IMG/VR virus record: IMGVR_UViG_2563366960_000002
Direction: 5' to 3' (one strand)
Source of the DNA: a virus
Lineage: Duplodnaviria; Heunggongvirae; Uroviricota; Caudoviricetes
Length of the DNA: 64,000 nucleotides
This document shows, piece by piece, positions 39,161-46,900 of the stretch; within the stretch, counting starts at the first letter, position 1, and each line of letters begins with the position of its first letter. The translations under genes and the position numbers were made by a program. The notes beneath the pieces are model-generated. The model did not search any database. It saw only the letters and a program-made list of their open reading frames with translations, and was not told the DNA's origin.

Positions 39161-39342
39161 AATGGCAGCCTCCTTTTGCTAATTTAAGGAGCTACCGCGT
39201 GAGGTTCCAATCTCAATGGCGGTAGCACTGACTGGGTTGGAACTACCGGCGCAAAAGGGAACCGGCCTGCCTTTCGGCAGCCCAGCCAGCACTACCATTG
39301 ATCTCGGAGCTATGTGCTACGTATGGCTGTGCGATGGCATGA

Positions 39343-39420
39343 CACAAAAAAGACGCTTTTGGCGTCTGTGTCGCCTTTTGCATTATCCGGGGTTCCAATC
39401 CCGGCATCCGTTTTACTAAG
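39343..39420 (-). ncRNA. candidate c4-type antisense regulatory RNA with intrinsic terminator
   Basis: On the - strand: hairpin GCCGGGATTGGAACCCCGG, then GACGCCAAAAGCGTC followed by TTTTTT, between the Op51-like operator and icd; boundaries not resolved. Confidence 0.3.
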
Positions 39421-39493
39421 ATGCCTGTTTAGGATAAACCGAAAATGCATTAGCACGCAAGAAAGTTAATGTAGCATATGAAGCTAAAAAAAC

Positions 39494-39510
39494 AAAATAA
39501 TTAGAGCAAT
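39494..39510 (-). promoter_or_regulatory. C1 operator (Op51-like) at the immI promoter
   Basis: Reverse complement ATTGCTCTAATTATTTT. Confidence 0.55.
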
Positions 39511-39656
39511 TTGCAACCGTGCGAATTATTTCTCAGGTAACTAAAATACATAACTTTAATTGATATAGATCAAAGATTTTGACCATTGCATGGTGAAACT
39601 TTGTGCTACAAAATGTTATTTTAAGGCGTTTTATCTGTGACAGGAGATAGTTAATC

Positions 39657-40007
39657 ATGTCATCTGAACATGTTCGTAAAGGTGTAACAAATGCGAAATT
39701 CAATGAAGAGCAATCTAATATTCTCTTTATTGAAATAGGAATTCTGTCAATACTGATAGGTTTAATATCTAAATCATGGTGGGCTTTTGGCGGTTCTTTT
39801 CTTGGACTGATTTTTAGTTTAAGAATAAAATTTCTGGCAATTCCATTGATGATTGTTTTTAGCTTAGTATGGGGAGCTATTGGCTATAGTATTGGTACTT
39901 TGTTTGAATCAACAGCAGCAAGTATTGTTTTGGGGGTAATTGCTTTCCTGAGTGGCTTGGGGACTCATTTTGCTGCCGTGCAATGGGCAAATGATATTGC
40001 AGAATAA
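39657..40007 (+). CDS. small four-helix membrane protein (cargo cassette gene 1)
   Basis: 116 aa; AGGAG RBS; four hydrophobic segments; AT-rich codon usage. Confidence 0.5.
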   Translation: MSSEHVRKGVTNAKFNEEQSNILFIEIGILSILIGLISKSWWAFGGSFLGLIFSLRIKFLAIPLMIVFSLVWGAIGYSIGTLFESTAASIVLGVIAFLSGLGTHFAAVQWANDIAE

Positions 40008-40029
40008 TTACAGATAAGAAGCGAAAATA

Positions 40030-40506
40030 ATGAATATGAGATTGTTTTTATTGTTTGTATCGTTAATTTCAGCAGGAGCATTTGCAAAAATTGATCCTCT
40101 ACAATGGAATGTGATTGAAGAGAGAGGGGGGAGAGAATATACAATCCATAATCATAATGGTGATAAGATAAGTTTTTTATGTGATATGGGATTCATGTAT
40201 GGTTCACCAGATAGTGCAGGTAGTTTAGGCTTGTTGCTAAGTTCGTCGAATAATAAAAAGGAGTATAATGCTGACAAGAATAAAATAGTATTAACTATAG
40301 ATGGTGAGCAATACCCTTTTAGCAATCTTGGGTCAATGGTTGGAGATTCTTGGTGGTATGCCTTTTGGCAAGATGCAGCAGATTCAAGTGCTAATATGAT
40401 TGATGCTTATGTTGATGATGAAAAAATTGCTACATTCCCTCTTTCTGGGCTAAGTAAGTTGTATCAACAAGCCAAAATGGATGGATGCATTAAACGAGGA
40501 AAATGA
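40030..40506 (+). CDS. secreted/periplasmic protein (cargo cassette gene 2)
   Basis: 158 aa; signal peptide MNMRLFLLFVSLISAGAFA; hydrophilic mature part with two Cys. Confidence 0.5.
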   Translation: MNMRLFLLFVSLISAGAFAKIDPLQWNVIEERGGREYTIHNHNGDKISFLCDMGFMYGSPDSAGSLGLLLSSSNNKKEYNADKNKIVLTIDGEQYPFSNLGSMVGDSWWYAFWQDAADSSANMIDAYVDDEKIATFPLSGLSKLYQQAKMDGCIKRGK

Positions 40507-40547
40507 TCTTTCTGTGTTAAAGATTAACGCAATCAATAAAACATTGG

Positions 40548-41615
40548 TTGCGTAATATTCTATTATATAAATGGAATAATATGACAAAAATTACTAATTC
40601 TAATGAGTTGGAGTTACTGTACAAACAGTCAGTAATCATTCCATCATACAAAGATCACGTAGCGATCTTGCAAAAACAATTAGGAATAGAAAAACATTCT
40701 TTTCAAAATATGACAAGATTGAATAGACAAGCTGTAATTAGTAACGCTCTTCGAAAACAATTGGCTAGTATGCCGAACTTGGCTGGAATAGGCAGCAAGT
40801 ATCGTGAACATATCGCGATTTTACAGAAACAGACACAGGCTCTTTTCCCTCATAACGCAAATAGATATATTCAAATGCTAAGGAAACAGGCAGAAATAGC
40901 TATGCCATTACGAAACCAGCTTGAGATGCTTAATAAGCAAGCTGGTTTAAATAACATGCAAGCGATACTTAAAGAATTACAACAAAGTGCAAGTTATAAA
41001 ATAGATGTAAGCCAAGACATAAAGAAAGTACTAGATCATTATGCTAGAACAAGAAATGCTTCATTACATCAAATAATAGAGCAGGGGCTTTCATCTATTG
41101 CGCAGGCTTATGCTGAAGGTGCTACTGAAACATCACACACCAAAAGTGATGTCCAAAACAAAGGATTAAATAAATCTAATTCAACGTTTGTTGATTCATT
41201 TAAAGAGCTTCCTTATCCGCTGCAATGGTTACTAATGGTTATATTTTCTCAAGTTGTGTTTGGTGCCTTTATTGATTACGGAAAGGAGAAAACCTTATTG
41301 GGAATACACGAGGCAGAATCATACCTTATATCTCTGTTTGAGGATAAACCAATATCAAAACAACAATTAATTAAAGAAAACAAAAAAATTAGTTGGGAAG
41401 ATCTCAATGGTTTTCGTTTTATAACTGGTGAGAACGTAAGATTACACGTCAGTCCTTCTGTAAATAGTGAAGTGATTGAATGCATTGCCAAAAACACAAT
41501 CGTTGCTATTTTAGATAAAAAAGATCGACAATGGCTTTTCGTGCAGGTTAAATCAGGGGACGAGTTTATTACTGGATGGATTACACGAACATATACAAAG
41601 CCTCTTAAGGCTTGA
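40548..41615 (+). CDS. single-pass membrane protein with KQ-rich helical repeats and C-terminal SH3b-like domain (cargo cassette gene 3)
   Basis: 355 aa; repeats HVAILQKQ/HIAILQKQ/IQMLRKQ/LEMLNKQ; TM segment WLLMVIFSQVVFGAFIDYG; C-terminus VRLHVSPSVNSEVI...GWITRTY. Confidence 0.5.
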   Translation: MRNILLYKWNNMTKITNSNELELLYKQSVIIPSYKDHVAILQKQLGIEKHSFQNMTRLNRQAVISNALRKQLASMPNLAGIGSKYREHIAILQKQTQALFPHNANRYIQMLRKQAEIAMPLRNQLEMLNKQAGLNNMQAILKELQQSASYKIDVSQDIKKVLDHYARTRNASLHQIIEQGLSSIAQAYAEGATETSHTKSDVQNKGLNKSNSTFVDSFKELPYPLQWLLMVIFSQVVFGAFIDYGKEKTLLGIHEAESYLISLFEDKPISKQQLIKENKKISWEDLNGFRFITGENVRLHVSPSVNSEVIECIAKNTIVAILDKKDRQWLFVQVKSGDEFITGWITRTYTKPLKA

Positions 41616-41714
41616 ATTTTATCTCCGTACCTTGGGGCTGGGTGTTGATGATGCTACTTGAAGCACTTGAGTTGTTTTAACGTAGTATCTGAAATGTGTA
41701 GACTGACCGGTAAC

Positions 41715-41733
41715 AAATGACAACTCGTAGAAT
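41715..41733 (+). promoter_or_regulatory. P1-type late promoter upstream of the sit operon
   Basis: AAATGACAA box, 4 nt, then TAGAAT. Confidence 0.45.
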
Positions 41734-41740
41734 CGGTTAA

Positions 41741-42331
<591 letters not shown>

Positions 42332-43930: not shown

Positions 43931-46900
43931 ATGGAAAGAAAAAACGCCAACATTGACGATGTTATAAGGACAGTTGAAACCGCCAGCGCAAAAGAGCTGG
44001 AAGAGCTTGCAGGTATCCGGGAAGCTGTTGAAGATTTGAAAGGGGGACGCGTTGCTACTGTTGATCCTGTCTCTCGCAGCGTGTCGGCATTAAATCGCAC
44101 AATCGACAATTCCCGGCCTGACTTTGTGGCCAAAGCGCCATCAGTAGACCCTATTGTTGACGCAATGAAACGGCTTAATTTAGGGGACGTTTCTCGTGTA
44201 GTTCAGGAAGATGTTGCTCAACAGGAACTGCGGGCCAAATCAACTACACCAAAGGGTAAAAAACGACACAGGAAGGCTATACCAGAGGATGTAAAGGCAC
44301 AACGGACCGAAGCAGCCGAACACGCTCGCGAAATGTTCGGTCAAAAAGGCGGTGCGCAAAAAAGCCAAAACAAACGCGATGCGCGTGGTCGTTTTATTGG
44401 CAAGTCAGGGAGTAAGGCCGCAGCGGAAGAAGCCCGTGCTGAACGAGCAGAAAAGGCCAGGCGCAAAGAGGATGATGAGCGTCTAAATGCTGAATCAGGT
44501 TTATTAAAAAAACTGTCAAAAGTAGCTGAAGGCATAGGTAACCCTTCAGAGACTCGTGCCGTCGATGCGTTAGGTTATGCCGTTGCTGGTCCATTGTGGG
44601 CAGCAGGGAAGGAGCTTGGCGGGATATCAAAAGAAGTTGGCGGATCGCTTAATGGTGCCAGAAAGTCTATTGCCGATGTGATTCGTGGCAATGACGATAA
44701 CAGCCGTAGAAAAGGTTTTTTTAGGCGTAAATCGCAAAGTAGTGCCGATGTCGTTCAGGTTAACACCCAAAAACGGACGGTTCAGGAACTTCAGGATCAG
44801 ACCAGCGAAATTAAAGAGGGCAATGACAAGATTCTCCGCGCCCTTGATCAGATAGCCAAAAACACCGGGAAAAAGAAGGGCGGCTTGCTGTCCAAACTAT
44901 TTAGCCTGTTAGGGAAGGGGGCCGGTGGCGTCGCGTCGTTGTTAATGGGGCGTGGCATGCTGAAAAAAGCTGGAGCACTCGCTTTTGGCGCTCTGGGGGC
45001 AAAGAAACTTGTAGGAATGCTACGCGGTGGTGGCAAGAAGACTCTCACCCATGAAGGCGGAGATTTGGCTGCCCGGGCAGCAGGTAAACTTGGATTAAAG
45101 GCAGTTGGTAAAGGGGCGTTACGCGCAATTCCCCTAGTCGGCACAGTGGCTGGAGGTATTTATGATGCGGTAACCGGTTGGAATGATACAGAAGCGCAAC
45201 GTCGAGCGTTTGGGCTTAAATCAGGACAAGATCCATCATTCCAGCAAAAAGCCGCTTATACGTTAGCCAATGTTCTTGATATGGGGGGACTGGTATCTGG
45301 TATTAGCAGCGCCATTGGTGAGGTTCTCAAATCACTTGGATTTGAGGATATCGGCAATATGTTGCAATCATTTTCGACGGAAAGTATTGCCCAGGCCATT
45401 GATAGTGGGATTACCAACTTAGAAACATATATTTCTAACCTTGGCGACACCATTTCTACCAAGTTCGAAGATTACACAGCAAAGATTGGTGATGCTGTTT
45501 CAGAATGGTTTAGCGATACATCCAATAAGCTGATTGAAAAGCTGGATGCCATAAAAAACTTCTTTACTGTCGATAACCTGAAACAGGTTTTCAGTGATGT
45601 AATTGATAGTGCAATTGATTTCATTAAGAACCCAGGGAAACACATTAAAGAGGCGGCTGGTAATATTTGGGATGGGGTTAAAAATTTACCCGGTAAAGCA
45701 TTAGATGCAGCGGTTGATGCCGTTAAAAATACCCCTGCGGAAATGATTGTATCAAAAATACCCAATCCGATCGGCGAGGCTAATGCGAAAGAAATCACTC
45801 CAGAGTTAAAAGCTCCGGTTAATAGCCACCAGGAGACATCTGATTCTAAAACTGAATCCGATGCCAAACAGACTAATATTGTTACCCGCGTGATAAATGC
45901 GGCACTGGACACGGCGAAAGATAGCAATAAAACAGTTAAAGAAACTGCTAATCAGATTATCAATGCAAATGCCGTAGAAACGGGAAATAGCGCGTTGCAG
46001 AAAATTGATAGAGCTATTGGTCAAAATAGCTCGTCATCATCGTCGCTTAATACCACTGGTACCAGGAATGACATTCAGAAAGCTGCGGATACCTACAACA
46101 ATGGCAACTTGGATGTAAAAGTCGAAGGTCTTGGCGCTGAAGGTAAGGCAAATCTCGATAAGTTGGCTCCGTATTTTGCTGACCTAGAGAATAAATATGG
46201 CCTTCCTGAAGGTACTCTTTACTCGATTGCTGCAACTGAATCAGGAGGGAATCCTAACGCAAAGTCTCCGCTGACAAGATCACCAGATGGAAAGTTAAGT
46301 GGTGGCGCACTCGGGATGTTCCAGTTCACGAGTATTGCTCGTAAAGAGACAGGGATATCGGAACAGGATGCATTTGATCCCGTGAAATCGGCAGAAGCTG
46401 CGGCTCTTCTCATGAGCAAGTATCTGAAGCAAGCCAATGGAGACTTAAACGAGGCCATCACTGCATATAACGCTGGGTTTGGCACTATCAATAAGTGGAA
46501 AAAAGGCATAGGTGACTTATCGAAAGAAAACCGTGAGTACGCGATCAAGGTCAATACTCATCGTGCTCGCTATTTAGGTGGTGAAATCTATACACCTGGA
46601 GCAGAAGCACAGGGTGGGGCGCAATATGGAGTGAGGGGACCACTGCCTGATAACGCTGTTATCGATCAGTCTACTGGTCTGGCGTTTACCCCTGGTGATA
46701 GTCCGTTTGAGAAAGGCGGTCTGGTAGACAAAATCGGTAATGCTGTTGGCGTTAACGATCTGGTCAACAAATTCATGCATGGTCGGGGGATGCGTCGAGA
46801 AGTTGTTCAGGGAACGCTCGAAGAACGTGCACGAGGAAAGGGGACCGCAACGGCTGCTGGCAATGTGTATGTTGATACACCTATGCCAGTTGAAGAGGCA

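Follow-up and report, generated by a model that had tools for sequence, protein, structure and literature searches.

Why does a P1-like phage-plasmid carry three envelope genes at the place where bacteriophage P1 keeps its superimmunity (sim) genes, and what might they do there? The question arises from a stretch of 64,000 nucleotides (hereafter the window) of the IMG/VR virus record IMGVR_UViG_2563366960_000002 (Caudoviricetes), in which the block 39540-41700 holds three co-oriented open reading frames (ORFs) on the + strand, here termed g1, g2 and g3. The original prediction had described an AT-rich cassette of membrane and periplasmic proteins between an Op51-like operator and the late promoter of the sit operon, and had proposed a horizontally acquired module that replaces sim in superinfection exclusion or envelope-level defence. 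Both the composition and the position were borne out. The GC content was 0.33-0.36 over positions 39400-41600 and 0.44-0.54 (about 0.48) on either side (400-nt windows), and GC at third codon positions (GC3) was 0.24-0.28 in g1, g2 and g3 as compared with 0.42-0.52 in ant, kilA, pmgC, tub, pmgB and sit; the block is compositionally foreign by both measures. In the P1 record, the interval from Oc4/Op51 to the late promoter LPsit consists of simA, simB and simC, the product of the last being labelled superimmunity. Based on the alignment with P1, the block is assigned to this same slot, of which the C1 operator corresponding to Oc4/Op51 is the left edge, and at whose right edge P1 homology resumes (Table 1); pmgC starts after LPsit, at 41765, and leads the operon pmgC-tub-pmgB-sit. 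Published work counts the simABC region among eight hypervariable, low-GC stretches of P1-like phage-plasmids (PMC9603915), and lytic growth of P1 does not require it (PMC10695390).

The cassette shares with P1 simABC the slot, the orientation, the low GC content and the layout as a small operon of secreted and membrane proteins, yet differs from it in that sim has neither an SH3b domain nor the two integral membrane proteins found here. None of the three proteins is similar in sequence to SimA, SimB or SimC: BLASTP against SimC gave E=7.2 for g2 and E=0.58 for g3, g1 gave no alignment with SimB, the match of g2 to SimB (E=0.14) was confined to the signal peptide, and tblastn of SimB and SimC against the window gave no match at E<0.1. 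Loci were typed between icd and pmgC using reference proteins, in all the loci fetched (cited below by L number), and seven slot architectures were found across P1-like phage-plasmids. With YfjT standing for the family of g2 and SH3 for that of g3, these were SimA-SimB-SimC in P1; SimA-YfjT-SH3 in many E. coli elements (e.g. L014, L016, L042-L049); g1-YfjT-SH3, the type of the window; g1-YfjT-DUF4760, with DUF4760 on the opposite strand, in plasmids of the p1493-4 type; SimA-g1-YfjT in Salmonella; SimA-YfjT in phage Ro157c2YLVW and Cronobacter phage JK004; and SimA-g1-YfjT with YfjT reversed, plus a colicin-like pair, in Pseudocitrobacter. A secreted SimA-domain protein in place of g1 was the commonest variant. 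As judged from this typing, the cassette is one permutation of four envelope families (SimA-domain, g1, YfjT and SH3-transmembrane, SH3-TM) and no one-off insertion. The idea of an acquired replacement module thus held with respect to foreign composition and non-sim proteins, while that of a single new unit gave way to a permutation of a shuffled set. The adjacent pairs SimA-g1, SimA-YfjT, g1-YfjT and YfjT-SH3 recurred across P1-like elements and partly beyond them, and since the four families recur in changing adjacent pairs, a related function may be argued for them. Slot content was highly variable, being absent or replaced in many P1-like elements, and in every variant the slot proteins (SimA-long, SimB, SimC, g1, YfjT, SH3-TM) carried a signal peptide or transmembrane (TM) helices.

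The block structure at the nucleotide level agreed with this picture. Megablast resolved the cassette into block A (39540-40494, g1 and g2) and block B (40794-41700, the 3' part of g3), which were found in different plasmid sets, and a hairpin at 40527-40553, possibly an attenuator or terminator, lies near their joint. One linked unit consists of g1 and its own g2 allele, and YfjT with SH3-TM makes up another recurrent pair. The triad SimA-long/YfjT/SH3-TM resembles the cassette in slot and three-gene layout, with YfjT second and SH3-TM third, and its SH3 part is 95% identical to that of the window at the nucleotide level. In contrast, its first gene encodes a secreted SimA-domain protein with a Sit-like motif, where the window has the four-TM g1; its YfjT allele is just 29% identical to g2; and its SH3 protein of 357-394 aa is about 50 residues longer than g3 and is encoded by a gene that overlaps the YfjT gene (by 14 nt in L014), whereas g3 of the window has lost about 50 N-terminal codons and follows g2 after a 74-nt gap with the hairpin.

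The SimA family offered a further view of the slot. Other elements carry an intact secreted protein of 172-222 aa, with long forms at the same slot in L014:2901-3419, L007:3234-3902 and L019:2802-3449, and P1 SimA (52 aa; L001:3560-3718) corresponds to its N-terminus, cut short; by this comparison, P1 simA is a truncated remnant of the full-length SimA family. At the end of these long forms lies a ~25-aa motif (MRHQxVQGTLEERARGxG) similar to residues ~947-979 of Sit, with a pairwise E=5e-7 and E ~1e-5 against the six-frame translated window, where it falls within sit at 46736-46867. Through it the long forms may imitate the injection protein Sit in the periplasm, and the motif is the sole sequence-level hint that ties slot proteins to the ejected tape-measure/transglycosylase. 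A Salmonella protein of 222 aa considered as a SimC homologue was rejected, being SimA-like.

The three genes of the cassette are genuine genes under purifying selection, as the ratio of nonsynonymous to synonymous substitution rates (dN/dS) was 0.06-0.21 for g1, g2 and g3 in comparisons with the close alleles L002 and L021 and with the Salmonella homologue L007 (0.06-0.11 for g1). The parts of the cassette diverged unevenly: between E. coli and Salmonella, g1 was 72% identical and g2 just 27-29%, and g2 and the N-terminal domain (N-domain) of g3 diverge fast while the SH3 domain is strongly conserved. The whole block was recovered at ~96% identity in 27 PLSDB plasmids and in 37 of 5,426 complete E. 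coli genomes, where plasmids of 90-100 kb carried it almost without exception, and was absent at megablast level from 50,697 phage records, in which g3 had no tblastn match either. Within PLSDB, where ~500 P1-like plasmids (509 matches) were recognised, 141 plasmids had SimC, 267 a member of the SimA family, 64 one of the g3 family and 53 one of the g1 family. The cassette is therefore a fairly common, previously sequenced and uncharacterised variant of cargo at a known hotspot. All database copies were 95-96.4% identical to that of the window, while the start of pmgC was 97.8% identical to P1, and because the copies reach just these values, the cassette of the window represents a distinct allele lineage.

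The single TM segment that the original prediction gave to g3 was recovered, and the length of 355 aa was revised to 344, the start at ATG 40581 being more likely than TTG 40548, because it is the start annotated by the Prokaryotic Genome Annotation Pipeline (PGAP) in 96%-identical plasmids; the TTG lacks a ribosome-binding site. In the protein, a helical, Q-rich repeat N-domain (aa 1-210) is followed by a TM helix, which a linker connects to the SH3b domain at the C-terminus. The KQ-rich repeats stood out clearly, with five copies of the motif h-x-K-Q in the N-domain as compared with 0.11 expected (five were reached in none of 500 shuffles). The predicted SH3b-like C-terminus matched SH3_3 with 26.3 bits against a gathering score of 27 in g3, and at E<=1e-3 in all 31 aligned family members (best 2.3e-9), and precomputed Pfam annotation places SH3_3 on most g3 homologues; the identification comes from hidden Markov models (HMMs). 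The SH3 domain hardly changes among Escherichia, Salmonella, Citrobacter and Yersinia. Despite saturation at synonymous sites (synonymous divergence, pS, of 0.84-0.87), amino-acid identity with the Salmonella homologue is still 74%, which points to strong selection for a conserved target. The N-domain varies within the family in length (344-481 aa for the overall protein) and in repeat type. It is predicted to be cytoplasmic and the SH3b domain periplasmic, since an N-domain of 210 residues that lacks a signal sequence should stay in the cytoplasm. DamX/FtsN, MotB and ExeA/GspA are built in the same way, their N-domain being cytoplasmic and joined through a single TM helix and a linker to a wall-binding domain at the periplasmic C-terminus. 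The resemblance is an architectural analogy with no sequence relationship; the binding domain of g3 is SH3b, unlike the SPOR, OmpA-like and PG_binding_1 domains of those proteins, and its N-domain is a hypervariable repeat.

Other leads on g3 were set aside. The AlphaFold2 (AF2) model built on the 31-sequence alignment predicted helices, with a mean predicted local distance difference test score (pLDDT) of 46, and was unusable; its Foldseek search against PDB gave nothing at E<=0.001. A helical HP0242 chimera found in the profile-versus-PDB search (E=9e-4) was rejected as an effect of repeat and composition bias. The match to TIGR04211 (SH3_and_anchor, YgiM-type) was below the cut-off (E=0.82; 9.2 bits, cut-off 65), and the domain order is the opposite. 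The only annotated PHROG matches obtained for the cassette were weak, one between the SH3 part of g3 and amidase PHROG 1794 (lysis; E=0.003), the other to an Arc-like repressor family (E=0.007), and were considered chance-level. Outside the slot, g3 homologues stood by themselves and in opposite orientation in phage-plasmids of a different type (~95 kb), and lay beside umuDC in Yersinia; distant homologues were single and oppositely oriented as well, beside immunity-type (icd/KilA-N) regions, in a moron-like manner.

The 158-aa g2 carries the expected cleavable signal peptide, with an N-terminus (MNMRLFLLFVSLISAGAFA followed by K) of the signal-peptidase-I type, no lipobox Cys and a predicted cleavage at AFA|K, all read from the sequence and not from a predictor; a hydrophobic leader is present in 15 of 15 full-length family members, P0073 being truncated at the N-terminus. 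The claim that none of the three proteins belongs to a characterised family was sustained as to SimABC, PADLOC and annotated PHROG homologies, and needs to be amended in that g2 belongs to a named, uncharacterised family. Based on BLASTP against E. coli K-12 YfjT (29% identity, E=6e-12) and on PF27224, precomputed for P0048 (96% identical to g2) and for slot homologues, g2 is a member of the YfjT/YkfB family, to which PGAP gives the name 'YfjT/YkfB family phage-associated protein'. It shares with K-12 YfjT (in the cryptic island CP4-57; YkfB lies in CP4-6) the family signature of a signal peptide, a mature domain of ~135 aa, a Trp and two Cys, and also a second Trp, W26. In the family alignment, C51 and W109 are invariant and W26 and C153 nearly so, and a disulphide bond between Cys51 and Cys153 is predicted. 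The gene yfjT is likewise preceded by genes for small envelope proteins, ypjK and yfjS; otherwise the K-12 genes have other neighbours and lie in integrative cryptic islands. The family is small (23 clusters at 50% identity in an exhaustive search of 1.8 billion proteins), and since it is uncharacterised, membership explains nothing about mechanism: no functional data on YfjT or YkfB were found in a literature search, and the profile gave nothing against PDB. The AF2 model of g2 has a pLDDT of 64.8. Long multi-domain matches (META, SpaA, SH3 repeats, Bcl-2-like), composed of many short matched stretches, were discarded as spurious or low-complexity. A relationship between g2 and the DUF4431 partner of g1 was rejected, as was the assignment to YfjT of a 123-aa reverse-strand ORF in L009, for which the alignment was confined to the signal peptide.

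The 116-aa g1 showed the four hydrophobic segments that had been foreseen, and in its family alignment the N-terminus (VRKGxTNAKFNEEQS) and the C-terminus are sharply conserved. A metagenomic phage homologue (L035:3857-4348) with an N-terminal zinc ribbon, located amid several zinc-ribbon membrane proteins, suggests that the N-terminus is cytoplasmic, and with four helices both ends are thus predicted to be cytoplasmic (N-in/C-in). No Pfam family at E<=1, no NCBIfam model and no PADLOC model at E<=1 matched g1, and its family profile had no relative among PDB sequences; proposals of a colicin immunity protein or a holin were dropped, as neither had Pfam or PHROG family support. Homologues were found beside an AAA_15/AAA_21 ATPase in Vibrio, in a non-P1 contig after a protein composed of DUF4431 followed by a SimA domain, and alone in a phage-plasmid of a Gram-positive thermophile, the Anoxybacillus caldiproteolyticus plasmid pBstUI51 (L022:3995-4345, 44% identical), where the gene adjoins a recombinase and lies near AbiEi and terminase genes.

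Table 1. Features of the sim slot and its flanks in the window.
Feature	Position	Strand	Basis
Rfam C4 antisense RNA	39215-39302	-	Rfam match
C1 operator, counterpart of P1 Oc4/Op51, ATTGCTCTAATTATTTT	39494-39510	-	2 mismatches to consensus; aligns with P1 Oc4
Upstream region of g1	39511-39656	+	AGGAG Shine-Dalgarno 39642-39646
g1, 116-aa predicted inner-membrane protein, four TM helices	39657-40007	+	ORF, hydropathy
g2, 158-aa predicted secreted (periplasmic) protein, YfjT/YkfB family	40030-40506	+	ORF, BLASTP, PF27224
Hairpin, 11-bp stem, in the 74-nt g2-g3 gap	40527-40553	+	terminator-like scan
g3, 344-aa predicted bitopic membrane protein	40581-41615	+	ORF; ATG 40581 is the PGAP start in L002
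g3 TM segment (aa 213-234)	41217-41282	+	Kyte-Doolittle maximum 1.81 over 19 residues; AF2 helix aa 212-244
g3 SH3b (Pfam SH3_3, PF08239), aa 285-338	41433-41594	+	Pfam E=8.6e-6
Short GC hairpin over the g3 stop, then T-rich run	41598-41613	+	terminator-like scan, sequence
Right edge of slot, P1 homology resumes	41712-41764	+	97.8% identity to P1 from 41712 on
LPsit late promoter	-22 box 41715-41723, -10 TAGAAT 41728-41733	+	P1 annotation transferred (L001 5004-5022), alignment

The function that best fits the cassette is superinfection exclusion at the periplasm and inner membrane, on account of the slot, the envelope-only products, the association among families, the purifying selection, and the position outside the late operon together with the hairpin. 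Drawn from location, topology and association, this reading is put forward tentatively, as a real possibility somewhat short of probable. The three envelope proteins would be expressed independently of the late operon, from a transcription unit of their own, as LPsit is downstream of the cassette and a terminator-like hairpin marks the cassette's end, which argues that it is not part of late expression. In the envelope, g1 would cross the inner membrane with four helices and have its N- and C-termini in the cytoplasm, g2 would be a disulphide-bonded periplasmic YfjT/YkfB protein, and g3 would be anchored by one helix, with its variable repeat domain in the cytoplasm and its conserved SH3b domain in the periplasm, where the latter would probably bind peptidoglycan or another conserved periplasmic target. 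Acting in the lysogen at the periplasm/inner-membrane interface, the three proteins would keep the DNA of an incoming phage, P1-like or other, and its ejected Sit-type tape-measure/transglycosylase from reaching the cytoplasm. Sim of P1, whose active periplasmic protein is SimC, reportedly causes exclusion after adsorption (Kliem and Dreiseikelmann, 1989), and the same role would be filled here by unrelated proteins. Phage proteins of the inner membrane or periplasm that block DNA entry and are encoded by accessory genes near immunity functions include T4 Imm/Sp, P22 SieA and HK97 gp15, from which the cassette differs in being multi-part and shuffled.

A number of observations weigh against exclusion. 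Homologues of g1 occur in a Gram-positive phage-plasmid and among metabolic genes, so that g1 cannot depend on a periplasm or on YfjT, and YfjT homologues reside in cryptic K-12 islands without a known phage phenotype. No sigma-70 promoter was found upstream of g1 by promoter scan and manual reading gave weak candidates only, which leaves expression in the lysogen a supposition. The window is devoid of a SimA-domain gene, the carrier of the sole direct hint at injection, and the charges that flank the TM helix of g3 are balanced and favour neither orientation. Low constraint, instead of an arms race, could account for how fast g2 and the N-domain of g3 diverge. Moreover, in PADLOC-DB 2.0 no match was found for g1, g2 or g3 at E<=1 or for the alternative slot proteins at E<=0.1; no function-annotated PHROG (v4), including those for exclusion, was matched beyond the two weak hits given above, the full-length matches of the cassette proteins being to phrog_15014, phrog_3429 and phrog_7086, all of unknown function (for g1, PHROG 15014 alone); and no solved structure resembles g1, g2 or g3 in profile-versus-PDB and Foldseek searches.

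Some of these same observations would be accommodated if the genes were lysogenic-conversion morons that aid the host envelope apart from any phage, through protection against pore-forming bacteriocins or toxins, in envelope stress or in colonisation, with g1 as an immunity-like protein. Pore-forming colicin immunity proteins are small and polytopic, like g1 in size and topology, and the slot of the Pseudocitrobacter type carries a Gly-rich, colicin-like ORF with a four-TM ORF on the opposite strand; g1 also occurs in Vibrio, in the Gram-positive phage-plasmid and in a non-phage context, and YfjT paralogues in cryptic islands stand beside a small membrane protein and a lipoprotein (ypjK-yfjS-yfjT). 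This explanation is nevertheless unlikely: g1 matched no Pfam colicin-immunity or other family even at E<=1, no toxin gene lies beside it in the window, and the tight tie to the sim slot, to SimA-domain proteins and to P1-like backbones favours a phage-directed role. The co-orientation of the cassette with the sit late operon, of which it lies directly upstream, raises instead the prospect of accessory lysis or injection factors of the phage's own lytic cycle, co-expressed with pmgC-tub-pmgB-sit, in which the SH3b protein would tether or time peptidoglycan degradation. YfjT genes immediately upstream of pmgC in the bona fide phages Ro157c2YLVW and JK004, and the weak lysis amidase match of the SH3 part, agree with such a role, as does the proposal that stand-alone SH3 proteins are lysis-module accessories in T1-like coliphages (PMC13164509). 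A lytic role is still clearly unlikely in view of the position upstream of LPsit with a terminator-like end, the variability and frequent absence or replacement of slot content, the dispensability of simABC for lytic growth, and the occurrence of g3 homologues beside immunity regions and not beside lysis or tail genes. P1, in addition, is said to have a complete lysis set elsewhere in its genome (Lobocka 2004).

The architecture of g3, with a periplasmic domain of peptidoglycan-binding type, a TM helix and a long helical cytoplasmic domain, would also suit an abortive-infection or envelope-damage sensor, in which SH3b reports peptidoglycan damage by the phage transglycosylase to the cytoplasmic domain and g1 acts as a membrane-permeabilising effector. 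The pattern of a conserved sensor with a variable tail is present, the arrangement resembles ZorAB of Zorya, and the ATPase beside the Vibrio homologue of g1 is typical of defence islands. We consider a sensor improbable, since no effector domain (nuclease, protease, NADase or pore family) was recognisable in the cassette, PADLOC gave no match, g3 works as a singleton in other elements, and its N-domain is a low-confidence repeat without a known signalling fold. If the cassette were instead a remnant that no longer functions and persists through its linkage to the immunity region, the AT-rich and foreign-looking DNA, the failure of the scan to detect a promoter and the truncated SimA remnant at the slot of P1 would fit; such a passenger is the least credible explanation, as the three ORFs are intact in dozens of plasmids under the purifying selection reported above and the SH3 domain is conserved in spite of saturated synonymous sites.

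Beyond the exclusion reading for the cassette itself, the four shuffling families could be interchangeable parts of one undescribed and widespread exclusion system of P1-like phage-plasmids, directed at Sit as it crosses the peptidoglycan and inner membrane. In such a system, SimA-long would imitate a segment of Sit in the periplasm, the peptidoglycan site would be occupied or sensed by g3, and g1 and YfjT would form a block on the membrane side. This extension is speculative and, as it stands, unlikely.

Several observations concern other cargo of the slot. In about half of the elements with g1 and g2, an oppositely oriented gene for a 297-aa DUF4760 protein (Pfam E=8e-14) replaces the SH3 gene (L021:3902-4795 on the - strand, in E. 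coli plasmid p1493-4; L025; L030-L032); no PADLOC match was obtained for this protein, and a literature search yielded no functional data. In the Pseudocitrobacter-type element L033 (IMGVR_UViG_2887663082_000001), a 382-aa ORF (5060-6208, + strand) with a Gly-rich N-terminus and a hydrophobic C-terminal hairpin is followed on the opposite strand by a 178-aa ORF with four TM segments (6234-6770, - strand). The pair looks like a pore-forming colicin and its immunity gene, which suggests that the sim slot can also carry bacteriocin-type cargo.

The flank to the left of the block holds kilA, ant1/2 and icd on the - strand. An Rfam match to isrK, an Hfq-binding small RNA, was found at 39346-39424 (- strand; 58.5 bits, which exceeds the gathering score), next to the C4 RNA on its upstream side, in the leader of the c4-icd-ant operon. 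The immI region of the window is too diverged from those of P1 and P7 for a megablast match. In plasmid loci, PGAP annotates beside icd a 39-aa coding sequence as 'ash family protein' (L002:3779-3898, L021:2523-2642), which corresponds to ~39180-39300 of the window; it is likely an over-annotation of the C4 RNA gene, as its position matches that of the C4 hit found by running Rfam on the window. Nine 17-mers resembling the C1 operator (0-3 mismatches) were present in the window, as compared with 0.26 expected, at 1378, 3469, 3518, 7142, 17809, 17820, 21342, 37811 and 39494, with an overlapping divergent pair at 17809-17836, which is consistent with a complete P1-type C1 regulon. The stretch between the operator and g1 (39511-39656) is common to plasmids of the p1493-4 type.

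In E. coli and Salmonella of clinical and animal origin, P1-like phage-plasmids are common; they mobilise resistance genes and serve as workhorses of transduction. The occupant of the sim slot decides which related phages can enter a lysogen, and hence the competition and spread of these elements. If exclusion is not its function, the cassette stays an ordinary and fairly common accessory block. What counts here is the modular picture of four families, the reinterpretation of simA, the Sit-like motif, and the placement in the slot of YfjT/YkfB, a family from the E. coli y-ome; the first three together make an exclusion mechanism directly testable. Should exclusion prove to be the role of the cassette, the known means of post-adsorption exclusion would be extended by a new protein repertoire, and there would be a handle on how the tape-measure/transglycosylase crosses the envelope, and if the four families were indeed parts of a single system, this would give yfjT and ykfB their first function and would explain simA as a decayed remnant.

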